A stretch of 64,000 nucleotides of DNA from positions 1,152,001-1,216,000 of the forward strand of contig OZ241855.1 of the NCBI GenBank assembly GCA_965202785.1, in the 5' to 3' direction. A program made the translations under genes and the position numbers. This DNA is from Thermodesulfobacteriota bacterium. GTDB taxonomy: Bacteria; Desulfobacterota_D; UBA1144; Nemesobacterales; Nemesobacteraceae. The number at the start of each line of letters is the position of its first letter. The stretch's first letter is position 1. Positions 10,218 to 55,837 of this stretch are shown piece after piece. The notes under the pieces are model-generated. The model saw nothing but the letters and a program-made list of their open reading frames with translations. It was not told the DNA's origin and did no database searches.

Positions 10218-11291
10218 GTGTCTGACTCAGGTTCGATTAAAAGCAGGATTTCTAAGAGCGTAAGGTCAATATCTGCTTACTCTGTGCCGAGGATCGACTG
10301 CTCGGTGAAACTTGACGGAAACGAAAGCCCTTACGATCTTGAAGGAGAAGAGAAGCTTGCCCTTTCCGAACGGCTGGCGAGACTTCCCGTAAATCGTTAT
10401 CCGGACCCCGAGGCCCTGGGAGTAAGAACTTCTCTTTCCCGCGCTCTAGGCTTCCCCGTAGATGGCATATTGCTTGGTAACGGCTCAGACGAGATCATAC
10501 AGATGATCGTCGAGGTGCTCGGGGGGAAAAGCGGCCGCGTGCTCGTGCCGTCCCCGACTTTCTCAATGTACAGGATCACGTCGCTTATTCTTGGGAGGCA
10601 GGTGACGGAGATTGAGCTTGATGAGAACTTTGACATAGATCTCGAACAGACCTTGGAGACGATTCACGCGCAGGACCCTGACATCGTTTTTCTCGCGACT
10701 CCGAACAATCCTACCGGGAATTCTTTTTCGGAAGAAAAAGTGCTCGAGATCCTGGAGGCAAGCGGTGGCGCGGTGGTTGTTGACGAAGCCTACTGCGATT
10801 TTTCGAAAAAAAGCTATATTCCCCATATAGATAAATACGAAAACCTGCTGGTACTGAGAACAATGTCCAAGATAGGGTTTGCGGGGGCGAGACTTGGAAT
10901 ATTCTTTGCACGACCGCAGATCGCAGACGAAGTGAACAAGGCGCGTCTTCCCTATAACATAAATTCTTTTAGTCAGGATGTGATGTCTTTTGCTCTTGAA
11001 AACCCAGAGGTTATTGAACGGAAGATAAGCCTTATATTGAGCGAAAGAGAAAGAGTTCGTGCGTCACTTGAGCGAATTAAGGGAATTCATGTTTATCCAA
11101 CGGACGCGAATTTTTTCTTGGTACGGGTTACGGACGCGGATTTTCTTTTCGAAGAGCTGGTCAAAAACGATATTCTGGTCCGTCGCTTCAAGGGAGAGGG
11201 ACGCCTTGCAAACTGCCTCAGGATCACGGTTGGAACCAGGGAGGAAAACGATCAGCTTATCCAAGCCCTAGTCAGCATATTTTCTTCCTAA
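10218..11291 (+). CDS. hisC: Histidinol-phosphate aminotransferase
   Basis: NRYPD, GNGSDE, PNNPTG, VDEAY, RTMSK. Confidence 0.95.
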   Translation: MSDSGSIKSRISKSVRSISAYSVPRIDCSVKLDGNESPYDLEGEEKLALSERLARLPVNRYPDPEALGVRTSLSRALGFPVDGILLGNGSDEIIQMIVEVLGGKSGRVLVPSPTFSMYRITSLILGRQVTEIELDENFDIDLEQTLETIHAQDPDIVFLATPNNPTGNSFSEEKVLEILEASGGAVVVDEAYCDFSKKSYIPHIDKYENLLVLRTMSKIGFAGARLGIFFARPQIADEVNKARLPYNINSFSQDVMSFALENPEVIERKISLILSERERVRASLERIKGIHVYPTDANFFLVRVTDADFLFEELVKNDILVRRFKGEGRLANCLRITVGTREENDQLIQALVSIFSS

Positions 11292-11309
11292 GTAGCTTTT
11301 CGCTACGAA
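11269..11309 (+). repeat. Direct repeat, left copy (41 bp), containing the hisC stop
   Basis: TAGTCAGCATATTTTCTTCCTAAGTAGCTTTTCGCTACGAA; 39/41 identical to 13543-13583. Confidence 0.92.
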
Positions 11310-11497
11310 AATTCTTGCTTAAAGCCGTTCTCTGCGTACCTGACTGGCTTCTTCTCTTTGAGGGAAAGTTCATACAATAAATATTCGAATTTTCGCCTGA
11401 AACGTGATTTATTGCATATGTAATATACTATTTTGCTTGAATGTGGATTTTAAGTAGTGTATATTTTAATATCAATAATTCACATTTTTGGTGATTT

Positions 11498-12319
11498 ATG
11501 GACAATAGAGTTATGCCACAAAGATCGATACCGCAAGGCAGACGCAAGCTTGCAGCCGTGATCAATGAGGCTGGTGACATCATTCGAATTGAAGATGTAG
11601 TCTCTGCGCTTCCGGTAAAGAGATCGGATGCCGCCAAGCTGCTTTCACGCTGGGCTAGCCAGGGCTGGCTAAGGCGTGTAGGGACGGGTGCCTATGTTGC
11701 TGTGCCTCTTGATTCTCTTGAAAGCGAGCGGGTCCTGGATGATCCCTGGATACTGGTTCCGGTTCTTTATGCGCCTGCCTATATTGGTGGGTGGACTGCC
11801 GCGGAACACTGGAACCTCACCGAGCAACTGTTCCGCCGAATTCTTGTCATGACCACGAAAACAGTGCGTAGAAAACACGAGATACGAGATGGGGCACAAT
11901 TCATGTTGCGTCATATAGAGGAACGGAAATTCTTCGGCACTAAGGCGGTCTGGCGCGGACGGTCCAAAATTCTGGTTTCTGACGTTCACCGGACGATTAT
12001 CGATATGCTTGATGAACCGTCCATCGGCGGGGGGAGTCAACACATGGCAGATTGCCTAGCTGTTTACCTGAAGTGTCCTGATCGAAATGATGAAATACTA
12101 ATAGACTACGCGAAAGCGCTTGACAACGGCGCGGTTTTCAAACGGCTAGGTTTCTTAGCTGAAAAATATCCCAATACCGAGATTTTAACCGAGGCCTGTC
12201 TGAAGCATATGACAAAAGGGAATGCCAAACTTGATCCCGCATTGAAATGTTCTCGCTTGGTCTCAAAATGGCGTCTTCGGGTTCCGTCGAACTGTAGAGC
12301 GGGAGGACGACATGATTAG
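11498..12319 (+). CDS. Type IV TA antitoxin / transcriptional regulator, AbiEi family
   Basis: N-terminal wHTH (LLSRWASQGWLRRVGTGAY), YIGGWTAAEHWNLTEQ and SDVHRTIIDML; 8-bp overlap with the downstream toxin. Confidence 0.85.
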   Translation: MDNRVMPQRSIPQGRRKLAAVINEAGDIIRIEDVVSALPVKRSDAAKLLSRWASQGWLRRVGTGAYVAVPLDSLESERVLDDPWILVPVLYAPAYIGGWTAAEHWNLTEQLFRRILVMTTKTVRRKHEIRDGAQFMLRHIEERKFFGTKAVWRGRSKILVSDVHRTIIDMLDEPSIGGGSQHMADCLAVYLKCPDRNDEILIDYAKALDNGAVFKRLGFLAEKYPNTEILTEACLKHMTKGNAKLDPALKCSRLVSKWRLRVPSNCRAGGRHD

Positions 12320-13505
12320 CAAGCGTGAGATCATTGATGCGGCGACAATTAAGGGACTCAATCCCCACATCGTCGAGAAGGACTATGTTCTTGGTTGGTT
12401 GCTGTGGGGGATATGTAATCATGAGATATTGGGTAAAAGCTGGCTTTTTAAGGGTGGCACCTGTCTGAAAAAATGCTTTTTTGAGACCTACAGGTTTTCC
12501 GAAGACCTCGATTTTACTCTTGTTGATTCCTCGCATATCGATGATGGTTTTCTTAAAACCGTGTTTGGGGAGATATGCGAACGCGTCTATGAACAGACCG
12601 GTATCGAACTGCCACTGCATTCTCACAAGTTTGACGTTTATCAAAACCCACGTGGCGGTAAATCCTGCCAAGCCCGGATAGGGTATCAGGGACCTGTGTC
12701 GCCACGTGGCAGAAGCATGCCGAGGGTTAAGCTTGATCTCACGGCTGATGAACTCGTGGTGCTGAGCCCGATTCAGTCACAGGTCTATCATCCTTACAGC
12801 GATGCCCCGAGCGGAGGTATCGCCATACGGTCATATGCATACGAAGAGGCGTTCGGTGAAAAGATAAGAGCACTTGCCGAACGGGGGCGACCTCGTGATT
12901 TGTACGATGTAGTTAACCTGTTCCGCAATCCTGAGGCACGGCCCTCTGCTGCGGTATTAGATGATCTGCTCCGTCAAAAGTGCGAGTTCAAGAATCTTGA
13001 TTTTCCTGTCTTCGCTCAACTTGAAATTAATAGACCTTTTCTAGAAAGCAGATGGGCGCAGATGCTGTCCCATCAGTTGCCTGCCTTGCCTCCGTTTGTA
13101 ACATTCTGGGACGAGCTACCTATTTTCTTTGAGTGGCTTCACGACGGAACTTTACCGCGGATTCCCGTCGCATATATTGGAGATGAAGGTGAAGAGGCTA
13201 TACGAGAACGCATGTTGCGCCTGCCGATTTCCGCCGTGACTCAATCCTATATCGAAATCATCCGTTTTGCCGCTTCCAGTCTGCTTTGCGTGGATCTAGA
13301 CTACGAAGGACATACAGACCGCGTTGAACCCTATTCGCTTCGCCGTACTAATAAGGGCAATCTGATCCTTAGGGCTTACAATGTGAATAAAAACGGACAC
13401 AGCAGCTATCTGGTCAGCGGTATTAAAGGAGCAAGGGTCACCGGTCAGGTTTTCAAGCCCCGTTTCGTAATTGAATTGACGCCTACCGGTCCAGTAGTTA
13501 TTTAG
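12312..13505 (+). CDS. AbiEii-family nucleotidyltransferase toxin with C-terminal WYL-like domain
   Basis: EKDYV, FKGGTCL, RFSEDLDF and EKIRAL..R.RPRDLYD. The last ~80 aa (VDLDYEGHTDRVEPYSLRR...LILRAY...IKGARVTGQVF) resemble a WYL domain. Confidence 0.88.
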   Translation: MISKREIIDAATIKGLNPHIVEKDYVLGWLLWGICNHEILGKSWLFKGGTCLKKCFFETYRFSEDLDFTLVDSSHIDDGFLKTVFGEICERVYEQTGIELPLHSHKFDVYQNPRGGKSCQARIGYQGPVSPRGRSMPRVKLDLTADELVVLSPIQSQVYHPYSDAPSGGIAIRSYAYEEAFGEKIRALAERGRPRDLYDVVNLFRNPEARPSAAVLDDLLRQKCEFKNLDFPVFAQLEINRPFLESRWAQMLSHQLPALPPFVTFWDELPIFFEWLHDGTLPRIPVAYIGDEGEEAIRERMLRLPISAVTQSYIEIIRFAASSLLCVDLDYEGHTDRVEPYSLRRTNKGNLILRAYNVNKNGHSSYLVSGIKGARVTGQVFKPRFVIELTPTGPVVI

Positions 13506-13541
13506 CTGATCTGAATTCAAGACGACCATGGATTCCTGTTG

Positions 13542-15125
13542 TTAGTCAGCATATTTTCTTCCTAGGTAGCTTTTCACTACGAAGAGAATTGTTGCCGCAA
13601 GGGCTATCCATGCGAAGATGTCTCCTACCCTCGAGTAGAGAGTTTCAAGTGAATCGATCAGAACTACCTCTCCCCTCAGGTTCTCCGTAGTGAATATCCC
13701 CGTGCGGGCCTCGATCTTCCCGGTAGGAGATACGATCGCGCTTACCCCGCTGTTTGTTGATCTTACCAGGTAACGTCGCGTTTCAACCGCCCTCGGAATT
13801 GAGAGGAGCAGATGCTGGTAGGGAGCGATGCTCCTTCCGAACCAGGCGTCGTTTGTGAGGTTAACGAGGAGGTTGGCTCCCATTTCCACATAGTCACTCG
13901 AAATCTTCGCCACTATGTCCTCATAGCATATAAGGGGCCCTATTCTCATATTTTTCCCCGGAATCTCAAGCACTCTGAGACCTTCCCCCGGGGTAAGGTC
14001 TCCCATCATGGGGAAGACCCTTTTCAGGAACTTAAGCTCCTCGTTTATCCAGGGGAAATATTCGCCCAGAAGAAAAAGCCGGGTCTTGCTGTAGTGGCCG
14101 AGGATATCACTTTGAGGATTGACCAGGAAGGCCGTGTTGTATTTTTTGTGATCCTCTTCATCCCAGCCGTCCTCAAGCAGAGCAGGGTCTTGGGTAAAGG
14201 AAAGTCCTCCGATGAGGAAGTGCGCTACGTGCCCCGTCGGCACTACATCTGTTTGGTCTTCGATTCTGTATGAGGATTTGTCTTTGGGGAACCAGTACTG
14301 AACCGATGTCTCCGGCCAGATCACGAGGTCTGCCCCCGGAAGTCTTCGCGACATCTCCCTGTGTTTTTCCGTTATGATCGGTTCATTGACGAGGTTTTTT
14401 TCCGCGTAATCAAAATTCGCCTGAACCATCCCGATTTTCACCCGGGGCTCTGTTTCAAGGAAATTCTCAATTTCGTTTATTCTGAAAGACCCGTAGCCGA
14501 GCACGATTACGATTATGGCAATCGAGATCGCGGGTGCGGCAAGCGCAGGTTTTTTTCTCCGCCGCAAGTCGTCAACGAGGTAGAAAACCGATACGTTTAC
14601 AAAAAACATCAGAAATCCCAGAAAGTTCACCCCGAGTGTATCAACCACCTGTATTACCTTTGGGTAATAGCCTTGGGAGACTCCTATTCCGTAGGGAAAG
14701 AGAACCGGGAAGAAAAACTCTGTAACCACCCAAGCAAAAGAGATCATAAGCGCGTTTGTGACACTTTTTCCTCGGCAGAGTCCAAATCTCGATATATACC
14801 AAGTGAAAATTCCGAACTGAAGCGATGAATACACGCAGAACAGTAACACGGCCGCCATGCTTGGGACCAAAGGGATTTCCCCGAACCTGTTGAGAGTTCC
14901 GACGAGCCAGTAAAGCGAGACGAGATTCATGGATGTCCCGGATATCATGCCCAGTCGAAGTGACTGTGAAGCGCTTTTCCCCTGAAGCGCCAGAAGCATT
15001 GGGGCAAAGCATACCCAGCCCAGTACGCCGAGAGTGCTTGAAAAAAGGGATGCGGAAAAAAGCACTCCGGATCCCGCGGCTAGGATTTCGTTTCCGGTCG
15101 GTTTGGTTATCCGGCTCGTTTTCAT
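13542..15125 (-). CDS. lnt: Apolipoprotein N-acyltransferase
   Basis: Multiple TM segments, VIWPET, ICYED, NLTNDAWFG, RSTNSGVSA. Start placed at ATG 15125. Confidence 0.95.
   Translation of the reverse strand: MKTSRITKPTGNEILAAGSGVLFSASLFSSTLGVLGWVCFAPMLLALQGKSASQSLRLGMISGTSMNLVSLYWLVGTLNRFGEIPLVPSMAAVLLFCVYSSLQFGIFTWYISRFGLCRGKSVTNALMISFAWVVTEFFFPVLFPYGIGVSQGYYPKVIQVVDTLGVNFLGFLMFFVNVSVFYLVDDLRRRKKPALAAPAISIAIIVIVLGYGSFRINEIENFLETEPRVKIGMVQANFDYAEKNLVNEPIITEKHREMSRRLPGADLVIWPETSVQYWFPKDKSSYRIEDQTDVVPTGHVAHFLIGGLSFTQDPALLEDGWDEEDHKKYNTAFLVNPQSDILGHYSKTRLFLLGEYFPWINEELKFLKRVFPMMGDLTPGEGLRVLEIPGKNMRIGPLICYEDIVAKISSDYVEMGANLLVNLTNDAWFGRSIAPYQHLLLSIPRAVETRRYLVRSTNSGVSAIVSPTGKIEARTGIFTTENLRGEVVLIDSLETLYSRVGDIFAWIALAATILFVVKSYLGRKYAD
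13543..13583 (+). repeat. Direct repeat, right copy (41 bp), containing the lnt 3' end
   Basis: TAGTCAGCATATTTTCTTCCTAGGTAGCTTTTCACTACGAA. Confidence 0.92.
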
Positions 15126-44554: not shown

Positions 44555-47500
44555 TTACACCCAGTGACGCCTGCGCTGGAACGGATAGCTCGGCAGCGAG
44601 ATGCGGCGGCGCGACTCCCCGGCGAACATGCCCTCAAAGGAAGGTGCCAATCCTGCCTCGTATGCCTCTGCAACCGCCTCCACAAAACCAGTACTGCTCT
44701 CATCTTCTTCCTCGTCGGATGGTCGCATCAGGCTCGCAAGCACGAGTGGTGAAGCGGTAGTTTCCTCTCCGTCCGACGAGTCTGGCCACTGGAGACTCAC
44801 CTGCGGCCCCAGTACCGCGCCGGGGCCAATTTCTACCACTGCACCCACTCCCAAGTCAGCAAGAGTGGAGATACCTGCGTCAAATGTCGCAGTCTCGCAC
44901 GCCTGCGTACGCCAGTACGCCCCGTCGAGTGGATTGTCCGAATCCATAACTAGCCCCGTAACGCCGCTCACCAGAGTCAGGGATGGAGGCGAGACCGCAC
45001 TCTCTGCGAATGCCGCTTCCAGACCTTTAAGAGATTGATCTGGGTCTACTCCCGGCAGCGCTGCCATCAACGTGCCACGAGTCAAGGCAAAGCGCAATCC
45101 GTCCTCTAAGGTGAAGACCCCCGCAGCCCGTGCCGCGGCGACCTCACCGGTGCCGTACCCCAGTGTGACGTTCGGTTGGATCCCAACACTTGCCCACAGT
45201 GCCGTCAGCGCGCACTCCAGTGCATAGAGAGCCGGCTGTGCCCAGGCTGCATCGTTCAAATCGCCCGTTGTTTCGGCGCGCTCGAACATCACATCGAGCA
45301 GCGATGCGCCTCTCTCTGTGCGCACCACGGTGTCACAGTAGTCCAAAACAGCACGCACGACTGGTTCGCTGTTGTACAGCGCCTCGCCCATACCAACCCA
45401 CTGGTTGCCCTCGCCTGTGTACACGAATGCTACCCTTGTTACAGGCTGCGGAGCTGGCTTATCAGGCGTAGCGTCGGTCTCCGCGAGTTTCGTCAGCCCT
45501 GCACGCAGAGACTGCGTATCTCCGAACACTACAGCGGCGCGATGATCAAAATGGCTACGTCCGACACTCGCCGTCCACGCTATGTCAGCAAGTGCAGGTG
45601 CTTCGGGGGAGGACTCAGCGATGTGCTTGTCGAGCCACGACAGGTACTGTCCTATCATGTTCCGCAGGGCACCTTCCGACTTGCCCGATAGCGGCAGGAG
45701 ACGCATTGTGCGCTCCGTTAATCCGTCCATGGCCAGCGGCAGATCCGCAATGGGCTCTGGCAGAGAAACGGGCACCTGCCGTGCGGCACCCCTAAACGAC
45801 TGCACTCCGGCACTTGCGCTGTCACCCTCTGTCGCGATTCCGTAGCCTTCCACCACCATATGCGCGTTTGTACCTGACATGCTGAACGCGCTTACTGCCG
45901 CGCGCGGCGGCTTGTCAGAATGGGCTGGCCAGACGGTCTTTTCAGAAGTCACCTGCACGGGCAGTCGGTCCCAGTCGATTTGTGGATTCGGTTCCTTGAA
46001 GTGCAGATGTTTCGGAATGACACCCTGCTTCATCGCCAGCACAGCCTTTATCAGACCTGCAACGCCCGCCGCCGTCTCCAGATGTCCGATATTTGACTTT
46101 ACGGTGCCTATCAGCAGCGGACGGTCAGCATCGCGCCCTCTTCCGTACACCGAGCCGACTGCGTGTACCTCAATCGCGTCGCCCAATTGGGAGCCTGCCG
46201 CGTGCGCTTCGAGATAGTCAACATCCGTCCCAGCGAGGCCCGCCTGAACAAGCGCCGCCTCCATAACACGCTCCTGTGCTGGGCCGTTCGGGACGGTCAA
46301 CCCCGTGCTTGTCCAGTTCTGGTTAATGGCAGAACCCTTGATGACGCCCCATATTCGGTCGCCGTCAACCTCCGCCTCGCTCAGCCGTTTCAGAAGGAGT
46401 ATTCCGCAGCCCTCGCCTCGTACATGGCCATCCGCAGACGCATCGAAGGGGCGAGACTGTCCACTCGGCGACAACATTCCCACATCCAGCATGAATTTGG
46501 AAATGTTGCGCGACAGCGCCGCATGTGCGCCTCCGGCGAGAGCTAGATCCACCTCGCCCCGCTGTAGCGCAGCAACGGCTTGATGTACCGCAGCCAATGC
46601 CGAGGCGCAGGCCATATCGATGGCCATTGCCGGGCCTTCCAGACCCAGTGCCGACGCGACCCTCCCGACGGTGATGCTGGCCGCCGTGCCGAGTTGACTG
46701 CCAGCCTTACCGCTGGCTTCAATCAAATGTCGGTATTCGCTGGCGGTGACTCCGGCATACACTCCGGTGCGACTGCCCCGTAGGCTGTCGGGAGCAATTC
46801 CGGCGTCTTCGACAGCTTCCCAACTCGTCTCCAACATCATTCTCTGTTGTGGGTCCATCATCCGCGCTTCTATCGGCGCAATGTGGAAGAAGCGTGAGTC
46901 AAACCACTCTATACCCTCGACAAACGCACCGCGCAGGTGGGCGGTGTTCTCGGAGTCTGGGTCTTCGGCAGCGTTCCCCTGCGAATCGCCAGCCTGGCGT
47001 CCGTCAGTCACTGCGTCAGTGCCCGATTCCATGAGGTGCCAGTATTCCGAAAGGTTTTTCGCACCTGGGAAGCGACACGCCATGCCGACTATCGCTATGT
47101 CGTCATCCTCAGTAGCGACGGACGGGCGCGGTGGGGGTGCGGCTGTCTCGGGCGTTGGAGCCGTCCCACTGTCCCCGCCCAGTTGACCGAGTTCACCCGC
47201 CAGATAGTGGGCTAAGGTAGTAATGTCGGGGTAGTCGAAGACGGCCGTGTTGGAGACGACATACTCGCCCGCGAATGCGCGGTTAAGCCGGTTTCTCAGT
47301 TCTACTGCCATCAATGAGTCCATCCCCAGATCGAAGAAGCCGATCGAGTTTGAAGGCGGGCTGGGCAGCCTCATCACTGCCTGGAGTTCCTTTTGCAGGA
47401 ACGACACCAGGATACTCTCCGACTCGGTTTGCGACGAGACGCGCAACTGAGACAACACGTCTTCCGAAGATTCCGACGTTTCGTCCATATCATCTGCGGA

Positions 47501-50500
47501 TGACAGCTCCTCCAGGAATGGCGGAAGATCATCGTGAGCCGTCGCGAAGGTCGGCCAGTCCACTGACGCGACCATACCGGCCGGAGCATCCTGTCGCATC
47601 AGCGTTTCAAGCGCTCTTAGCCCCTGCTGCGGCGTAATCCAGCCCGTGCCCGTCGCCTCCAGCTGGCTTTCGATGCGCTCTCGCTGCTCCTCTGCTTCGC
47701 CAAGCCCCGACCAGGCTCCCCACGCGATCGTCTGCCCGGGCAGTCCGAACGCGCGCCGATGGGCTGCGAGTTGATCCAGAAATGCGTTAGCCGCTGCATG
47801 GTTCGCCTGACCCGCGTTGCCCAGAACGCCCGCCACGCTGGAGAACAGAACGAACATATCCAAATCCCTGTGCATGGTCGCGCGGTGCAGATGCCATGCG
47901 CCAAGCATCTTTGGCCAGAGCACCTGCTGGAAACTGTCCCAACTCTGGTTCGCCAGTACGGCGTCCGACAGCACTCCCACGCTGTGTATAACACCAGCGA
48001 GAGGCGGTAGAGTCGCATTGATGCGCTCCAGCATCGCGTCCACCGCTGCCGTGTCCGTCACGTCCGCGATCTCCACCTGCACTGTCGCGCCGCGTCCGCG
48101 TAACGTGTCGATAGTTTCTATGGCCTCGGGATCGGGGTCGCGTCGGCCGTTCAGCACGATTGCGCCCGCGCCCCGGTCTGCCAGCCAGCTGGCCAGAGCA
48201 CAGCCAATACCGCCCAGTCCGCCGGTCACCAGGTAGGTTCTGTCCCCCCGCAGCCGTCCCGTCTCCAGCGGCGAATTTGTAAGAACGATCTTGCCGATGT
48301 GCCGCGCCGCGCGCATGAACTGCATCGCGGAGATGGCTTCCGCCATCGACCACCTGCTGTGGACAAGCGGCGTCAGTTCTCCTGCCTCAAACCGTTTCAT
48401 CACGGTCTTAAGAGCCGCTCCCGGCTGCTCCGGGTTCTGCTCTTTCAGGGTATCCTGTTCAAAGATGTGGTAGTCCACATCCGGGCGCGCGGCGGCCATT
48501 TCTTCCTCGGTGTAGATGTTCACTCCGGCCAACTCGATGAATCTGCCGCCATGCGCGAGGCAGGACAGGCTCGCCTCGATAAAGCCCTCTCCAGTCAGGC
48601 TGTTCAGCACCACATGAACACCTTCGTCGCCGGTGGCTTCGAGGATCTCCTGCCCGAACCGGGTCTGTCTGCTGTCGAAGACATGCTTCACGCCTAGCGA
48701 GCGTACATACTCCTGTTTCGACACGCTGGCCGTGGCGAACACTTCCGCGCCCGCGGCGTGCGCAAGCTGGATAGCTGCCGATCCTACGCCGCCGGCGCCC
48801 GCGTGAACAAGCACCCGCTCGCCCGCTTTCAATTTCGCCAGATCGTATGACAATGCGGCACAAACGAACACGGTCGGTATAGTGGCAAGCTGCGAAGTCG
48901 GGACACCCGGCGGCGCAAGCGCAACCATCTCCTCCCTCATGACCGCTTCTGAACCGAAAGTACCGAATGCCAGCGCAACTACGCGGTCACCAATCGACAC
49001 ACTCGTTACATCGGAACCGACTTCAAGAACATGTCCGCACGTCTCGCCACCCAAAACACCCTCATCGATAAGGCCAAGAGAACGGAACACATCCCAGAAG
49101 TTCAATCCGGAAGCCTCCACAGCCACGCGAACTTCTCTCGGTTCGAGTGAACGCTCCGGCGAGTCCAGCACCTGCAGTTCTTCAAGCGCACCGCCCGCGT
49201 CCGGCTCCAGGAACCAGCGCGACCCTTCCGGCAGGGTCAACTGCTCCGTATCAGCACCGGCACGAACGAGACGCGCAGCCCGACGGAATCCCAGACGGTA
49301 GGCGATGTGAGTCTCAGAGTCCGGGTACATCAGTTCATTGACGAGGTCAGATAGCGGCACAGTATTGGCGGGGTCAAGGTCGATCATCTTCGGTTGCAGA
49401 TGGGGCGCTTCCAGTGCCGCTACCTTGCCAAAGCCCCATAGCAGTGCGCCGGTCAGTTGTCCGAGATGCTCCCGCTCTAGGACCTGCCCGCCGCGCGTGA
49501 TAAACCACATGCCCTTTGCGGGCGCAGCATCGGCATCGCCCATCCCCTGCACGAGCGCCAGGGCGCTTGCGCCCACCTGCCTGATATCCTCGCCCAACTC
49601 TTCGGTGGTGGCGTCTGCGCCGCGACCGTCAAGCGCCGCGAGATGTACAATGCCGCTGAGCGGCACCTCCGCAGGCAGACCTTCGAGTAACGAGTGCCAC
49701 GATTCGCGGTTCTGCATCTCCACGGTCGCCTTGATCACTGCCCGATCTTTTTCTGATGATTCCCCGTCTGACTGAGCGCGGTCGCTCACCAGCACGACGG
49801 TCTGGTTGCGTGCTGCCAGTTCCGCTGCCAGCTCATCTGCCACACCGCATTGATCACCCGCGAGAACCCATATTCCTGCCGTCTCCTTCACCTCCGCAGG
49901 TCCTTGCGCCAGTATCACACCTTTCTCCGGTGTGCTGGTCGTGTCAGATTTGCTTCCTCCCAAGACCTCCACTTCACCGAAGCCCGCGTCGCCGAGCGCC
50001 TGTCGCCAGACCGCGGGGCCGATCATTGCGTGATGCGTACGGTAGTCGTCGGCAAAGCGCCACCAACCGTCCAACTGCCCAAAAGTCATGTCCTGCCAGT
50101 CCAGACCACAAAGGTTCTCAAGTGCCACCAACTGGCCCGATGGCGCGAGCAGCATGCGGCAGTGAGTCAGTGTCTCGTTCAGGTAGCGTGTGCCGTGCAG
50201 CACATTGGAGGCAATGACCAGGTCATAGCCATGAAGATCAAAGCCCTGCTCGATAGGGTCCTTTTCGATATCCAGGGCACGGTATTCGATTGACTCGTCG
50301 CTTCCGCCAAAACGCTTTTCTGCTTCTGAGAAGAAGCCGGCCGATATGTCAGTATATGTGTAATTATAGCGACCGGCCGGCAGCTCAGGCATCACCGCCG
50401 CCGTGCCCGCTCCCGTACCGGCGCCGACCTCCAGCACGCGCAGTCTTCGGTCTTTCGGCAGCGTGTCCAGGAGTGCCGCAACCGCATCCCCCAGCATTTG

Positions 50501-53500
50501 GTTCGCCATACGTCCAGCCGGCGATTTCAAGTACAGGTCGCCGGCGGTTGGCTCTCCGCTGCCGAACAGCAGCGTCAGCGGGTCCGCTCGACCAACGAGC
50601 GCATCAGCGAAAGCGGCAGCGCACCGCCTGAATAGTCCAATTTCGTTCGTACCGTGCCAGTATCGCGCACTCATCTGGTCTGCAAACTCATCGGGATTGT
50701 GCGGCATATGATCCGGCAGCGGGTCGTCCTGCCCAACCTTCACGACAAATCCATCGCCCGCTTCTTCCACCACCTTCGCTTTGACGAGCAGTTCAAACAT
50801 ACGGCGGAACATACGCTGGTGTTTTGGCGGGACATCCAGTCTTTCCCGCACGGCTTCCGGCTCGACGAATTCACCGACCTTGCGTTCCCACCCCAGTTGC
50901 TCCAGTGCCATGAGCGCATAGAGCCACGACAACCGCTCAAGGTCATTCAGCAACTCAACGCGCTCGTCGGCTTCTACGCTTTCACCTGCCAGATACTCGG
51001 TGAACGGTATCGAGCGGTCAGCAACGCCTGTCGGACTCGTAAGGAAATCGGCCGATAGCATCCCATCCGCAAGGGCGCGGTCGCGCCAGACGATTTCGTA
51101 TAGGAGGTCGTGCAGCTCTTCGGTCTCCGAGAGCAACGCCGCGCGAGTGGCGCGCTTCACAATGTATCCGCTCAATCCGCCGAGCTCGATGCCGTCCGGC
51201 GTGTAGAACAGGAGGTCGCCGCTCAGCACTTCCGATGTCTCGCTTTGCTCCTCGTCCCGCTCTTTGTCGCGGACGTTCTCGCGCAGACGGGCGTGACAGA
51301 TGAGGCGTTCCGGAAGCATCTCCCTCAGCCAAAAGCGCTCCCATCCGAAAGGCAGGTAGGTTATCTCGTCTTCGCCTCTGGCGGAATGCCACGCCGCCGA
51401 AAAGACTTGGAAACAACCGTCGAGCAGAATCGGATGCAGGTCGATGTCGCTGCTCGAAACGGCTTCCGGCAGGGCCACCTCGCCAACCGCCTCGCCATTC
51501 GCCGCACACAGGTCCTGAAGCGTGCGGAACGATGGTCCGAGGTGGATGCCGGCTTCTGCCCGCGTGCGATAGAACGCCGCCACATCCTGCGACTCCATAC
51601 CCGACTTCAATCCGTCCAAATCGACGCGGTTGACAGTCCCGCGCGTTCCGCCTCCAAGCGAAACCCCGCCCTCGGCATGAAGCGTCCAGCCATCTTCGGA
51701 CTCGCCCTTGCTGAATATCTCTATATGCCGTGTGTTCCCGTTCTCGGATGTGCTCAGCACGGCCTGGATTTTTCGCCCGGCTTGCGTGGTGTCGTCAGCG
51801 CTATCGTCCTCCGCAAAGACCAGTGCGCTGTGCAGTTGCATGTCCTCCACATCCACCGATTGCGCCCCTTCGGATAGGGCCGCCGTCGCTGCCATAACGC
51901 CATACAACGCGCCCGGCATTACTGCCCGCCCGAAGACGCGATGGTCGTTCAGCCAAGACGGGTCGGAAGGAAACATCTCCGTCTCGAGCATCACATCACC
52001 GCGTGGCGACTCGTGTCTTGTACCCAGCAGAGGATGCCCAGCGGCTGCGCGCCTACGTCTTGGTGCGTCAACCCAGTGCCGTGCACGCTGGAAGGGATAG
52101 CCCGGCAGCTCAATCCTGCGCCGCTCCTCCCCCGCGAACAGTCCGTCGAATGCAAGCGTCAGCCCCGCCTCGTATGCTCCCGCAACGGCGTCCATGAAGC
52201 CATTGTCATGGTCTTGCGGAAGGACATCGTCCTTTGATGGACGCAGCATACTCTCAAGGACGATGGGGTCTTTTGCCTCATCCGTCACGTCAGACCAGAC
52301 AAGAGACACCAATGGGCCGAGCACGGCGTGTGGACCCACCTCTATAACCAGGTCAGTGCCCAGTTCCGCCAGAGTTCCGACGCCTCTGCGAAACTGCACG
52401 GGCTCTCGCGCGTGACGGCGCCAGTGTTTGCCGTCAAGAATCTCGTCCGGCGCCACAACACTGCCCGTTACATTGCTCACCAGAGCCACGGACGGCGGCG
52501 AGGCTGCAACATCCTCCTGATATACTTCTTCTAATGCATCCAGTGCGGGTTCCACCAGAGCGCTGTGGAACGCCTGATTTCTGCTCAACGGCCTTACGGT
52601 AATCTCTTCGGCCTCGAAACGCTCCGATACCGCCTGAACTGCTGCTACGGGGCCGCTAATGACCTGATGAATGCCGTTGTCAACGGCGATGCTCAAGCCC
52701 GGGCTGTCGGATGACGCATTGTACTCATCAACCGCCGCCGCCACTTGATCCTCTGGAGCGAACACCGCCGCCATTGTGCCCAACTCAGGAACTGACGAAA
52801 GCAGGACGCCGCGTTTTGCAACGAATCTCAGACCCTCTTCCAACCCGAACACGCCGGCAGCCTGCGCCGCCGCGAATTCACCGAGGCTGTGTCCGATTAC
52901 CACGCTCGGTTCAACTCCGATACTGCGCCACAATGCGGTCAGAGCACACCCCAAGGCATAGACGGCGGGCTGCGCCCAAGCTGCATCATTCAAATCGCCC
53001 GTTGCTTCGCCGCGCCCGAACATCACATCCAGCAGCGAAGTGCCTCGCTCCTCCAATATAAGCCGCTCACACCTGTCGAGAACGGCACGCACTACTGGCT
53101 CCTGCTCGTACAGGGACTTGCCCATGCCTACCCACTGGCCGCCCTGTCCCGTGTACACGAAAGCCACTTTCGTGGTTGCTGCCGCCTCCGCACCCCGGTC
53201 ACCCTCCGCAACCACCTTCAGCCCGGCGCGCAGCGACTCAGCGTCCCTGAAAGCGACGCCCGCGCGGTGAGCGAATTGGCTGCGCCCGACGCCTGCCGTC
53301 CACGCCATGTCCGGTAGGAAAGGGGAGGCGGCCGAGTCCGTGGGTTCCAGGTCCACAGAGCGCTCGTCAAGCCACGCAAGGTAGTGTTCCGCCAGTTCCC
53401 GCAGGGCATTGTCCGTCTTGCCTGACAGAGGTAGCAGCCGCGTGGCACGCGTAGCGGGTGCTTCCGCCGCCCCCTCCGAGGCTGCCTTTGGCACAGAGAT

Positions 53501-54946
53501 GGCTACATGCTTCGGAGAACCCGCAGGCCACTTCATGTCGCGCAATTCGTTAGAGGCGCGCGATGGCGTGCCATAGCCCTCCACCACGATATGCGCGTTT
53601 GTGCCGGACCAGCCAAAACCGCTCACGCCAGCCAGCGGGGCTCGGTCGGATACGAGAGGCCACTCGGTTGTCGTCGAAGTAACACGCAAGGGGAGCTGCC
53701 GCCAATCGACTGCCGGTGTCGGATTGCGAAAATTCAAGTGCTTCGGGATTATGCCCCGGTTCATCGCCAGCAGTACCTTCATCATCCCGGCAACGCCTGC
53801 CGCAGGTTCCAGATGTCCAAAGTTCGTCTTCACTGAGCCAATGAGCAGCGGTCGTTTGGCCGGACGGTCTTTGCAGTATGCGGCCGTCACTGCCTCCAGT
53901 TCGATAGGGTCGCCCACCGGTGTTCCCGTGCCGTGCGCTTCTACATAGTCCACCTGTGACGGCAGTACGCCCGCCTTGAGCAATGCCGCTTTGATGACTT
54001 GTTCCTGTGCCTTCGCATTCGGCACGGTAAGCCCTGTGCTCGCACCGTCCTGATTCACCGCGGAGCCGCGGATGATGCCCCAGATTCGGTCGCCGTCCGC
54101 TTCCGCATCACTCAGCCGCTTAAGAACCAGTACCCCGCAGCCTTCGCCGCGCACATAACCATCGGCGTCGGCATCGAAAGTCTTGCAGCGCCCGTCCGGC
54201 GCCAGCATGCCGGCATTAGCCCGCAGTTCTAGAAGCCGTCCCGACAGGATGGCGTTGACCCCTCCCGCCAGTGCAAGGTCGGCCTCACCCCGCTGCAAGC
54301 CGGTTACCGCCTGATGCACAGCCACGAGTGATGAAGAGCAGGCAGTGTCCACTGCAATCGCCGGTCCTTGTAAGCCAAGCGCGAAGGAGACTCGTCCGAT
54401 GGCCGTGTTGTAGGAAGTGCCGCTGACCGTGTAGAGGCTTGAGGCCGGTTCAGCAGTGTCGCTGGCTTCCAGTATGACCCCCCGGTAGTCGTTATTGCTG
54501 ATGCCGGCATACACTCCGGTTCGGCTGTTCTTCAGCCCGTCAGGGTCTATTCCCGCGTCTTCGAGCGCCTGCCAGCTCGTTTCCAGCATCAGTCGCTGCT
54601 GCGGGTCAAGGTGCTGCGCCTCGACCGGCGAAATGCGGAAAAAAGGGGCGTCGAACCGGTCAACGTTGTCTATGAGACCGATGAAACGACATGCCTCTGC
54701 CTGAGGCGTGGCGTCCTGGAAAAGCTCGCCGACACGCCCAACGCCGGAACCCGGAACGCCCTCGCTGACCGCATTCTCACCTGCTTCCAGAAGACGCCAG
54801 AACGCCGAAACACCATTTGCGCCAGGGAATCGGCATGCCATGCCGACGATTGCTATCGGCTCTTCGGATTGTGAACCCGGGCGATTCCGAATATCCGGCT
54901 CAGCCGCCGCAGTTTGAGAATAATCAACAGACCGCTTTTTACTCAT
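44555..54946 (-). CDS. supA: Type I polyketide synthase KS-AT-DH-MT-ER-KR-ACP-KS-AT0 (SupA-like)
   Basis: KS1 DTACSSS/HGTGT/NFGH; AT1 GHSLG...QAFHS; DH HRVFGRAVMP; MT LEVGAGTG; ER LVHAGAGGVG; KR TGGLGGIG; ACP DLGMDSL; KS2 DMACASA; AT2 GYGTG. Neighbours match the sup gene set. Confidence 0.88.
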   Translation of the reverse strand: MSKKRSVDYSQTAAAEPDIRNRPGSQSEEPIAIVGMACRFPGANGVSAFWRLLEAGENAVSEGVPGSGVGRVGELFQDATPQAEACRFIGLIDNVDRFDAPFFRISPVEAQHLDPQQRLMLETSWQALEDAGIDPDGLKNSRTGVYAGISNNDYRGVILEASDTAEPASSLYTVSGTSYNTAIGRVSFALGLQGPAIAVDTACSSSLVAVHQAVTGLQRGEADLALAGGVNAILSGRLLELRANAGMLAPDGRCKTFDADADGYVRGEGCGVLVLKRLSDAEADGDRIWGIIRGSAVNQDGASTGLTVPNAKAQEQVIKAALLKAGVLPSQVDYVEAHGTGTPVGDPIELEAVTAAYCKDRPAKRPLLIGSVKTNFGHLEPAAGVAGMMKVLLAMNRGIIPKHLNFRNPTPAVDWRQLPLRVTSTTTEWPLVSDRAPLAGVSGFGWSGTNAHIVVEGYGTPSRASNELRDMKWPAGSPKHVAISVPKAASEGAAEAPATRATRLLPLSGKTDNALRELAEHYLAWLDERSVDLEPTDSAASPFLPDMAWTAGVGRSQFAHRAGVAFRDAESLRAGLKVVAEGDRGAEAAATTKVAFVYTGQGGQWVGMGKSLYEQEPVVRAVLDRCERLILEERGTSLLDVMFGRGEATGDLNDAAWAQPAVYALGCALTALWRSIGVEPSVVIGHSLGEFAAAQAAGVFGLEEGLRFVAKRGVLLSSVPELGTMAAVFAPEDQVAAAVDEYNASSDSPGLSIAVDNGIHQVISGPVAAVQAVSERFEAEEITVRPLSRNQAFHSALVEPALDALEEVYQEDVAASPPSVALVSNVTGSVVAPDEILDGKHWRRHAREPVQFRRGVGTLAELGTDLVIEVGPHAVLGPLVSLVWSDVTDEAKDPIVLESMLRPSKDDVLPQDHDNGFMDAVAGAYEAGLTLAFDGLFAGEERRRIELPGYPFQRARHWVDAPRRRRAAAGHPLLGTRHESPRGDVMLETEMFPSDPSWLNDHRVFGRAVMPGALYGVMAATAALSEGAQSVDVEDMQLHSALVFAEDDSADDTTQAGRKIQAVLSTSENGNTRHIEIFSKGESEDGWTLHAEGGVSLGGGTRGTVNRVDLDGLKSGMESQDVAAFYRTRAEAGIHLGPSFRTLQDLCAANGEAVGEVALPEAVSSSDIDLHPILLDGCFQVFSAAWHSARGEDEITYLPFGWERFWLREMLPERLICHARLRENVRDKERDEEQSETSEVLSGDLLFYTPDGIELGGLSGYIVKRATRAALLSETEELHDLLYEIVWRDRALADGMLSADFLTSPTGVADRSIPFTEYLAGESVEADERVELLNDLERLSWLYALMALEQLGWERKVGEFVEPEAVRERLDVPPKHQRMFRRMFELLVKAKVVEEAGDGFVVKVGQDDPLPDHMPHNPDEFADQMSARYWHGTNEIGLFRRCAAAFADALVGRADPLTLLFGSGEPTAGDLYLKSPAGRMANQMLGDAVAALLDTLPKDRRLRVLEVGAGTGAGTAAVMPELPAGRYNYTYTDISAGFFSEAEKRFGGSDESIEYRALDIEKDPIEQGFDLHGYDLVIASNVLHGTRYLNETLTHCRMLLAPSGQLVALENLCGLDWQDMTFGQLDGWWRFADDYRTHHAMIGPAVWRQALGDAGFGEVEVLGGSKSDTTSTPEKGVILAQGPAEVKETAGIWVLAGDQCGVADELAAELAARNQTVVLVSDRAQSDGESSEKDRAVIKATVEMQNRESWHSLLEGLPAEVPLSGIVHLAALDGRGADATTEELGEDIRQVGASALALVQGMGDADAAPAKGMWFITRGGQVLEREHLGQLTGALLWGFGKVAALEAPHLQPKMIDLDPANTVPLSDLVNELMYPDSETHIAYRLGFRRAARLVRAGADTEQLTLPEGSRWFLEPDAGGALEELQVLDSPERSLEPREVRVAVEASGLNFWDVFRSLGLIDEGVLGGETCGHVLEVGSDVTSVSIGDRVVALAFGTFGSEAVMREEMVALAPPGVPTSQLATIPTVFVCAALSYDLAKLKAGERVLVHAGAGGVGSAAIQLAHAAGAEVFATASVSKQEYVRSLGVKHVFDSRQTRFGQEILEATGDEGVHVVLNSLTGEGFIEASLSCLAHGGRFIELAGVNIYTEEEMAAARPDVDYHIFEQDTLKEQNPEQPGAALKTVMKRFEAGELTPLVHSRWSMAEAISAMQFMRAARHIGKIVLTNSPLETGRLRGDRTYLVTGGLGGIGCALASWLADRGAGAIVLNGRRDPDPEAIETIDTLRGRGATVQVEIADVTDTAAVDAMLERINATLPPLAGVIHSVGVLSDAVLANQSWDSFQQVLWPKMLGAWHLHRATMHRDLDMFVLFSSVAGVLGNAGQANHAAANAFLDQLAAHRRAFGLPGQTIAWGAWSGLGEAEEQRERIESQLEATGTGWITPQQGLRALETLMRQDAPAGMVASVDWPTFATAHDDLPPFLEELSSADDMDETSESSEDVLSQLRVSSQTESESILVSFLQKELQAVMRLPSPPSNSIGFFDLGMDSLMAVELRNRLNRAFAGEYVVSNTAVFDYPDITTLAHYLAGELGQLGGDSGTAPTPETAAPPPRPSVATEDDDIAIVGMACRFPGAKNLSEYWHLMESGTDAVTDGRQAGDSQGNAAEDPDSENTAHLRGAFVEGIEWFDSRFFHIAPIEARMMDPQQRMMLETSWEAVEDAGIAPDSLRGSRTGVYAGVTASEYRHLIEASGKAGSQLGTAASITVGRVASALGLEGPAMAIDMACASALAAVHQAVAALQRGEVDLALAGGAHAALSRNISKFMLDVGMLSPSGQSRPFDASADGHVRGEGCGILLLKRLSEAEVDGDRIWGVIKGSAINQNWTSTGLTVPNGPAQERVMEAALVQAGLAGTDVDYLEAHAAGSQLGDAIEVHAVGSVYGRGRDADRPLLIGTVKSNIGHLETAAGVAGLIKAVLAMKQGVIPKHLHFKEPNPQIDWDRLPVQVTSEKTVWPAHSDKPPRAAVSAFSMSGTNAHMVVEGYGIATEGDSASAGVQSFRGAARQVPVSLPEPIADLPLAMDGLTERTMRLLPLSGKSEGALRNMIGQYLSWLDKHIAESSPEAPALADIAWTASVGRSHFDHRAAVVFGDTQSLRAGLTKLAETDATPDKPAPQPVTRVAFVYTGEGNQWVGMGEALYNSEPVVRAVLDYCDTVVRTERGASLLDVMFERAETTGDLNDAAWAQPALYALECALTALWASVGIQPNVTLGYGTGEVAAARAAGVFTLEDGLRFALTRGTLMAALPGVDPDQSLKGLEAAFAESAVSPPSLTLVSGVTGLVMDSDNPLDGAYWRTQACETATFDAGISTLADLGVGAVVEIGPGAVLGPQVSLQWPDSSDGEETTASPLVLASLMRPSDEEEDESSTGFVEAVAEAYEAGLAPSFEGMFAGESRRRISLPSYPFQRRRHWV

Positions 54947-55177: not shown

Positions 55178-55837
55178 TCAGGGGAAAGTCACTATCCCTG
55201 CTCCCTCCGGTTTTCTGAATGTGAAAAACGAATCGGGAATGCCCGAGTTAACTTCCGCCGTGCCCAGTTCTATAATCGTCGTGTTTCCGAAGAGGTCGCC
55301 GATTATGATTCGCCTCAGCGTATAGGTCTTTGGATCGACCGCTATCGTTACCTGTTTTGCCTGTTCCTGCTGTTTCTGTTTTAAGTCAAGGAGAATGTTG
55401 CCCTGTTCATCCTTGCTCCCAGCGCCTATGCGGACATCGAAAAGACGATCAAGATCCTCCAGTATGGAAATAACGGTGTAAGAGCCGAGGGAGCCTGCCC
55501 AGACGCTGTCAAATTCCGTTTCGGCAACCTGATTTTCCTGGCTGTCAAAATACCAGACCTTTTTTCCGTCAGAGACTATCGTATCTTTCCACGGTTCTTC
55601 GTACTGCCATTTCATCATCGCCGGTTTCTTGAACCATACCTTTCCCGAGGATGAGATTTTCTCCTCAAGATCTTTTATCCGGGTCACCTGCGTGAAAGGG
55701 GATTTAAGATCGTTTATGGGAGCGTATTTTTTCTGGATGTTGCTTACAACAGCGGCTGCGTCCTGGGACCTCGCGGGCTGCGCGGTAAAAAGAAGGGTGG
55801 TGGCAAAAAACGCTGCCGCAAGCGCGATTTTTTTCAA
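55178..55837 (-). CDS. lolA: Outer-membrane lipoprotein carrier protein LolA
   Basis: Signal peptide, FTQ, GKVWFKKPAMMKWQY, IVSDGKKVW; downstream of ftsK. Confidence 0.9.
   Translation of the reverse strand: MKKIALAAAFFATTLLFTAQPARSQDAAAVVSNIQKKYAPINDLKSPFTQVTRIKDLEEKISSSGKVWFKKPAMMKWQYEEPWKDTIVSDGKKVWYFDSQENQVAETEFDSVWAGSLGSYTVISILEDLDRLFDVRIGAGSKDEQGNILLDLKQKQQEQAKQVTIAVDPKTYTLRRIIIGDLFGNTTIIELGTAEVNSGIPDSFFTFRKPEGAGIVTFP

Follow-up and report, generated by a model that had tools for sequence, protein, structure and literature searches.

We analysed a 64,000-nt stretch of DNA from a Thermodesulfobacteriota bacterium (assembly GCA_965202785.1, contig OZ241855.1, positions 1,152,001 to 1,216,000 of the forward strand; hereafter the window, with position 1 at its first letter) and, within it, a pair of overlapping genes, abiEi and abiEii. 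By its sequence, the region reads as an ordinary two-gene AbiE toxin-antitoxin/abortive-infection module with a COG5340 antitoxin and a DUF1814 toxin. The toxin is a nucleotidyltransferase (NTase) that ends in a WYL domain, and it is the origin and state of this domain, which retains its fold and has lost the motif typical of its family, that concern us here. The genes and the parts of the toxin are as follows.

11498..12319, plus strand: abiEi, 273 aa, a COG5340-type antitoxin whose N-terminal region resembles a winged helix-turn-helix (wHTH)
12312..13505, plus strand: abiEii, whole gene, a 397-aa toxin
12312..13103, plus strand: NTase domain of AbiEii, aa 1-264, assigned from Pfam, Foldseek and motifs
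12450-12461, plus strand: KGGT motif, aa 47-50
12498-12515, plus strand: SEDLDF motif, which includes D65 and D67
12888-12908, plus strand: RPRDLYD motif, aa 193-199
13104..13232, plus strand: linker, aa 265-307, modelled by AlphaFold2 (AF2) as two short helices and an extended segment after them, with a predicted local distance difference test score (pLDDT) of 65-91 by block
13233..13505, plus strand: degenerate WYL domain, aa 308-380, with a short C-terminal strand and the stop codon, assigned from fold and homologues
13401-13424, plus strand: WYL motif site, encoding SSYLVSGI where the family consensus is RSYRVDRI

The coupled abiEi-abiEii pair described in an earlier note on this DNA is borne out: both reading frames are present, both proteins match Pfam or PADLOC models, and the frames share 8 nt (ATGATTAG). 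With a GGGAGGA at 12301-12307, 5' of the abiEii ATG, this overlap leads us to predict that the two genes are translationally coupled. The antitoxin matches PADLOC model PDLC02271 (E 2.7e-123, aa 8-265), while its match to Pfam AbiEi_4 is under the cutoff (E 0.0046) and its score against the NCBIfam AbiEi equivalog is far under the cutoff; an ATG at 11513 is a possible alternative start. A prediction of the AbiEi-AbiEii complex, run with both proteins as alignments and without controls, gave a score of 0.02 (mark 0.32). The toxin matches Pfam PF08843 (AbiEii) over aa 35-264 (E 1.7e-36, 126.8 bits, cutoff 22.5) and the 396-position PADLOC AbiEii model PDLC02317 over aa 1-396 (E 3.7e-177); no NCBIfam model matched it.

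To place these genes in their family, we surveyed contigs from one genome per species, aligned the best 80 of at least 534 stretches encoding relatives, and counted motif states from the alignment; the WYL region could be aligned in 77 of the 80. An AbiEi homologue lies directly 5' of the toxin gene in 79 of the 80 loci. The NTase motifs, which the earlier note had called intact, are present and near-invariant: K47, G48, G49 and T50 are conserved in 76 of 77 loci, D65 in 74 and D67 in 76, while K184, R195, D196 and D199 are conserved in all 77. The catalytic signature of the window toxin is thus complete, with its GG(S/T) loop, DxD, catalytic lysine and C-terminal R.RD.YD. Modelled at full length from a 50-sequence alignment, the toxin gave an AF2 model with pLDDT 86 and a predicted template modelling score (pTM) of 0.82. 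The N-terminal 300 residues align by Foldseek with MenT3/TglT (6j7p/6y5u; E 1.1e-6, TM score 0.64-0.66 by target), and further Foldseek matches of the N-terminal part to MenT4 and JHP933 have E of about 1e-6, so that this part of the toxin is predicted to adopt the MenT-like bilobed NTase fold.

The C-terminal part of the toxin consists, in the AF2 model, of a helix (308-322) followed by five strands (325-380) at pLDDT 86-89, and a model of aa 300-397 alone gave pLDDT 88.9. In a structure comparison independent of Foldseek (VIA), the top nine of 48,161 PDB chains were the WYL regulators PafBC, CapW, BrxR and DriD, with Z 9.7-12.3 and a root-mean-square deviation (rmsd) of 2.9-4.0 over 83-93 aligned residues. 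Next in rank, at Z of 7.7 or less, came designed SH3 barrels, the Cas13d accessory protein WYL1 (Z 7.4) and Hfq/Sm proteins. Foldseek agreed: the 17 best of the matches listed, and every one listed to rank 28, are WYL regulators (E 2.8e-5 to 1.5e-2), with DriD aligned at an rmsd of 1.6-2.6 over 78-80 columns. The earlier note had proposed a C-terminal WYL-type domain and would have abandoned the idea had the C-terminus lacked a WYL/Sm-like fold; the fold recovered by both comparisons is that of WYL.

At the level of sequence, the domain is recognisable through its relatives. The full-length window toxin does not match the Pfam WYL profile (PF13280) at E up to 1, aa 310-397 alone reach E 0.19 and 12.2 bits (under the cutoff of 21.8), and a PF13280 scan of three members of the subclade to which the window copy belongs found nothing. 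At the same time, six of ten homologues scanned exceed the cutoff at aa ~313-376 (26.9-32.6 bits), one more reaches 20.6 bits, and the full-length homologues that are PF13280-positive are 63-73% identical. Because homologues pass the cutoff at the same positions, the window C-terminus is a WYL domain by descent. We conclude that it is a true WYL domain, by fold and by descent. It does not have the flanking (w)HTH and WCX of the regulators: its N-terminal neighbour is the NTase, and beyond the last WYL strand there are just 17 residues. The window toxin is therefore not a member of the wHTH-WYL-WCX regulator family; the domain is what the two have in common.

The combination of AbiEii with WYL is widespread. 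A search of 5.8 billion proteins gave 7,913 significant matches among 8,000 scored candidates, and 99 of the 120 best matches are already annotated with both PF08843 and PF13280. The best 80 loci come from Alpha-, Beta- and Gammaproteobacteria, Acidobacteriota, Desulfobacterota, Nitrospirota, Chloroflexota, Planctomycetota, Bacteroidota, Elusimicrobiota, Gracilibacteria, WOR-3, Calditrichota and others. When the WYL piece alone was searched against 1.84 billion cluster representatives, 449 proteins were found (E up to 1e-3), and nine of ten shorter matches scanned contain a partial AbiEii domain; they appear to be pieces of the same architecture that were cut at the N-terminus, not other contexts. 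Since the 396-position PDLC02317 spans the toxin from end to end, the seemingly extra C-terminus belongs to a profiled subfamily and is not a one-off. In RefSeq, full-length plasmid-borne relatives from Rhizobium and Thiodictyon (57-59% identity) are named 'nucleotidyl transferase AbiEii/AbiGii toxin family protein', and Makarova, Anantharaman, Grishin, Koonin and Aravind (2014; PMC4012209) described WYL combined with an 'AbiGII-like nucleotidyltransferase (DUF1814)'. The fusion is thus already catalogued and not new. The earlier note's statement that no characterised system with this fusion was known holds, as our literature searches on WYL joined to AbiEii-type toxins turned up no experiments with the fused protein; taken as a claim of novelty for the architecture it does not hold, given the listing in 2014, the PADLOC profile and the RefSeq annotation. 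The term 'WYL' occurs 0 times in three MenT/AbiEii mechanism papers, and a tblastn search against phage records returned no match at E up to 1e-5. Sister pairs of mixed phylum are frequent in the tree of the family, indicating frequent horizontal transfer of the module; for example, the toxins of a Hyphomonas metagenome-assembled genome (MAG; L012, Alphaproteobacteria) and an Acidobacteria MAG (L014) are 82% identical.

What sets the window copy apart is the fourth strand of the domain. The family consensus there is R364-S-Y366-R367-V-D-R370-I, and the window toxin has S-S-Y-L-V-S-G-I, that is, S364, L367 and G370, in keeping with the earlier note's remark that the WYL signature residues had diverged. 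R364 is found in 70 of 77 loci, R367 in 60 and R370 in 58, and all three together in 52; only four loci lack all three. Comparable strands contact single-stranded DNA (ssDNA) in the regulators: reported contacts are K202/R204/W206/R207 in DriD and R164/R168/R184 in CapW, and the R200A substitution in E. coli CapW is reported to abolish ssDNA binding. The conservation of the three arginines across the subfamily suggests that the ancestral protein most likely bound single-stranded nucleic acid.

The loss of the arginines goes together with a shorter protein. Most relatives are ~465-495 aa long, and in these the WYL domain is followed by a basic low-complexity linker and then a conserved Cys/His motif of ~45 residues, with the pattern Y.C..CGK.F.RK.....L..HK...G..C.G. 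Of the 77 loci, 51 have this tail (for example L006:1498-2895, minus strand; L013; and P0016, aa 398-483), and its matches to Pfam zinc-finger and zinc-ribbon families are all sub-threshold. All four survey loci with none of the three arginines are tail-less, and so are the window copy and its four syntenic orthologues (same genus, 75-97% identical), which likewise have none of the three. A search 3' of the stop codon for a remnant of the tail in the window and the four orthologues found none; the shared ELTP segment was all that matched.

Constraint on the two parts of the toxin differs as well. Across the five syntenic orthologues, the Nei-Gojobori ratio of nonsynonymous to synonymous change (dN/dS) lies at 0.10-0.14 in the NTase; in the WYL domain, at similar dS, it is 0.23-0.67. 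In the window subclade dN(WYL)/dN(NTase) has a median of 3.0 (range 1.46-5.74; 10 pairs, not independent, and a WYL region of 76 codons), while in control lineages that keep the arginines it is 0.95 (range 0.21-1.82; 26 pairs, 72-88% identical), a contrast that is consistent despite these limits. We also built a tree from the NTase and linker only (a quick IQ-TREE run with midpoint root, four fragmentary rows dropped, and branch support from the Shimodaira-Hasegawa-like approximate likelihood ratio test, SH-aLRT). In this tree the window subclade is monophyletic (SH-aLRT 98), its sister is a tail-less form with R-Q-R at the three positions (100), and it is nested in a group dominated by forms with R-R-R and the tail. 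Complete loss of the arginines requires at least two origins (starred branches of the tree). Because the tree is quick and midpoint-rooted, the direction of change is read by parsimony; so read, the window copy is a derived, eroded version of the family. The fallback offered by the earlier note, that the domain may have altered specificity or be decaying, agrees with the lost arginines, the missing tail and the relaxed constraint.

A different change was seen elsewhere in the tree. In a supported clade of 10 loci (L027, L030-L033, L035-L039), the tail and R364 are kept, and R367, R370 or both are changed; eight of the 10 have Leu367 with Ser or Asn370 (for example RSYLVDSIL), R370 is kept in two and R367 in one. 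Here the WYL motif has been remodelled for a second time, and independently.

The module lies between the convergent housekeeping genes hisC and lnt, flanked by a direct repeat:

11269..11309, no strand: left copy of the 41-nt direct repeat, containing the hisC stop and a remnant of the lnt 3' end
13543..13583, no strand: right copy of the 41-nt direct repeat, with the lnt stop (minus strand)

The two copies are identical to each other at 39 of 41 positions, and the repeat corresponds to the hisC/lnt 3' overlap that is single-copy at empty sites (aligned for G017 and G015). In five of five module-less genomes of the genus examined, hisC and lnt converge and abut, and in two of these hisC is 93-95% identical. 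Since the flanking repeat equals the single-copy overlap of the empty site, we identify the 2,274-bp cassette as an insertion with target duplication. We found no integrase or transposase within the 2,274 bp. The abiEii stop lies only 37 nt from the right repeat, and we considered whether the toxin had been truncated at the insertion boundary; this was rejected, as close relatives that have other DNA downstream are just as short.

The whole genome, one contig of 1.64 Mb, carries the toxin gene once. Some AbiEii match is found in 13 of 24 other genomes of the genus, and a full-length relative in seven. In G003, as in the window, the module has hisC on one side and lnt on the other; in G019 it adjoins hisC, and in G018 and G022 it adjoins lnt. 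Two other members of the genus, G001 and G021 (loci L006 and L007), have the canonical 466-aa form with AbiEii, WYL and zinc-finger-like tail, 59% identical to that of the window; its neighbours in the tree are alphaproteobacterial forms, a position that points to separate acquisition within the genus.

Upstream of abiEi, a consensus scan and a repeat search gave the following candidates:

11437-11465 (element 11437..11486), plus strand: candidate promoter TTGAAT-17-TATATT, 9 of 12 positions matching the consensus
11440-11449 and 11477-11486: inverted repeat over the candidate promoter
11442-11453 and 11458-11469: direct repeat over the candidate promoter

The promoter scan is weak: the region has six sites, where shuffled sequences gave 2.9 +/- 1.7. 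By analogy with AbiEi autoregulation in known AbiE systems, the repeats may form a putative AbiEi operator. An Rfam scan of 10500-14500 gave no match at E up to 1.

Farther along the window, a single open reading frame on the minus strand (44555-54946) encodes a 3,463-aa type I polyketide synthase with Pfam domains for ketosynthase, acyltransferase, dehydratase, methyltransferase, enoylreductase, ketoreductase, acyl carrier protein and a second ketosynthase region. The stretch that contains it has a GC content of about 0.60, compared with about 0.50 elsewhere, and the genome that carries so long a gene is small (1.64 Mb). The gene is flanked by lolA (55178-55837) and ftsK (55834-58044).

How, then, might the window toxin work? 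We favour, with a probability of roughly 60%, the reading that it is a working AbiE toxin controlled by AbiEi, in which the WYL domain is vestigial or re-purposed and does not act as a canonical nucleic-acid-gated switch. By homology, AbiEii would nucleotidylate tRNA 3' ends in the manner of MenT toxins and so halt translation; MenT toxins and S. agalactiae AbiEii are reported to modify tRNA 3' ends in this way and to block translation. AbiEi would probably repress the operon through its wHTH and probably also bind the toxin, inducing auto-phosphorylation of the threonine of the KGGT motif (T50). This last step is modelled on reported work in which binding by AbiEi causes AbiEii to auto-phosphorylate at T65, with homologous sites at S78 of MenT3 and T39 of MenT1, a result that led its authors to reclassify AbiE as type VII. 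An ancestral unit of WYL domain, basic linker and Cys/His tail would have eroded in the window lineage while the fold was kept.

One challenge to this reading is that the WYL domain of the window copy could still be a working sensor of phage- or damage-derived single-stranded nucleic acid, maybe with altered specificity, that allosterically switches the toxin on or frees it from AbiEi. The fold is that of WYL regulators, in which ssDNA binding is reported to drive allostery in the solved cases, and Makarova et al. (2014; PMC4012209) inferred for the family that ligand sensing by WYL regulates Abi systems. Moreover, several observations weigh against treating the domain as a relic. It has been kept in frame with dN/dS below 1, so some purifying selection remains in the subclade and the domain is not free to decay; its faster change could reflect diversifying selection instead of relaxation, and the rate comparison itself is drawn from a short region and from pairs that are not independent. 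Y341, R344, R345 and Y366, the other half of the putative pocket, are kept, and the domain has a net charge of +5, where canonical forms span 0 to +7, so that some nucleic-acid binding may survive; R354, on the WYL-motif strand, is present in the window and its closest relative. The weight that we place on the lost arginines is also lessened by the fact that positions 364, 367 and 370 were equated with the DriD and CapW contacts by motif, not by superposition, and a profile of 50 family members together with a canonical member found, among PDB sequences, MenT4 and chance matches only. Finally, T50 is a candidate phospho-acceptor, proposed from the GG(S/T) loop shared in the MenT4 alignment and from published S/T conservation. 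Even so, we regard a sensor role for the window copy as unlikely, because the three arginines of RSYRVDRI, whose motif equivalents are reported to contact ssDNA in DriD and CapW, are all replaced, the tail is gone and constraint is relaxed. The WCX, reported to be part of the ssDNA crevice of the regulators, is absent, and the domain changes at about three times the rate of the enzyme, a disparity that canonical lineages do not show. Furthermore, members of the subclade vary widely at the motif positions and in charge (-4 to +4 in the relatives, -4 to +5 with the window included), and R354 is not conserved among them.

A further alternative gives the domain a role in substrate recruitment and not in signal sensing. 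In the family at large, WYL, together with the basic linker and the tail where these occur, might hold single-stranded parts of the target tRNA or RNA and set specificity or processivity, with the window form weakened. MenT and AbiEii toxins are reported to act on single-stranded tRNA 3' ends with differing tRNA specificity, and the pockets of WYL domains reportedly accommodate 3-4 nt of single strand irrespective of base. A basic linker and a Cys/His finger are typical nucleic-acid-binding add-ons and follow WYL in 51 of 77 loci, while the four survey loci and five subclade members that have lost the three arginines are all tail-less, as if arginines and tail were one unit; the pTM of 0.82 for the full-length model suggests that WYL may hold a fixed position relative to the enzyme. 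On the other hand, characterised AbiEii and MenT toxins work without such a domain, and the clade of 10 keeps its tail despite changes at R367, R370 or both, and we consider this role doubtful. Far less probable still is that the whole module is an inactive remnant, domesticated or decaying and devoid of toxin activity. The small genome, the accessory distribution within the genus and the eroded C-terminal domain would suit such an account, but both reading frames are intact and coupled, every NTase motif residue is present, the NTase dN/dS across the five syntenic orthologues is low, and AbiEi is 79-93% identical across the genomes with the syntenic module.

Our preferred reading of the window copy leaves room for a more speculative view of the family, which we put forward tentatively and rate as rather improbable. 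Canonical members might be single-chain sensor-effectors, in which single-stranded nucleic acid bound by the arginines would override AbiEi-induced auto-phosphorylation and turn tRNA nucleotidylation on. On this view the pocket would be dead and the tail absent in the window lineage and in one or more others of independent origin, which would have reverted to plain antitoxin control; alternatively, the fast-evolving WYL surface in the genus of the window might have been retuned to another trigger, for example a phage protein.

In transcription factors, the action of WYL domains as ssDNA sensors is by now well understood, and a toxin that carries its own sensor would be a compact design for abortive infection. 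The window copy is a poor model for WYL sensing because the sensing residues have been lost. What it offers in practice is a natural negative control to set against canonical relatives, and two of these, with arginines and tail complete, are found in the same genus; if the sensor-effector view of the family is true, pocket-dead lineages offer a ready-made evolutionary loss-of-function comparison. The cassette is, in addition, a clean example of a 2.3-kb toxin-antitoxin insertion, with a 41-nt duplication, between two housekeeping genes.

Compared with known systems, the module is closest in organisation to AbiE of Lactococcus lactis and Streptococcus agalactiae, with which it shares overlapping genes, the antitoxin first, a PF08843 toxin and an antitoxin of the AbiEi profile. 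Characterised AbiEii proteins, however, are not described with WYL (a 2026 preprint uses the term 0 times), and the window toxin has ~130 residues more than these, made up of the linker and WYL. The toxins MenT1, MenT3/TglT and MenT4 provide the closest solved structures to the N-terminal 300 residues (6y56 at 22% identity); MenT4 is the only PDB sequence match, sharing the FKGGT..K and RFS.DLDF motifs with the window toxin. Unlike the latter, MenT toxins have no WYL domain and have diverse antitoxins, and their identity to it is 11-22%. The WYL domains of PafBC, DriD, CapW and BrxR superpose on the window C-terminus, and the R-x-aromatic-R-x-D-R motif of canonical family members resembles the ssDNA-contacting strand of these regulators; in the window, by contrast, WYL is attached to an enzyme and not to a DNA-binding domain, and the arginines are S, L and G. 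The WYL-DUF1814 fusion of Makarova et al. (2014; PMC4012209) has exactly the architecture of the window toxin. Where that paper treats the fusion, it lists it without experiment and mentions neither the tail nor lineages with a degenerate pocket.

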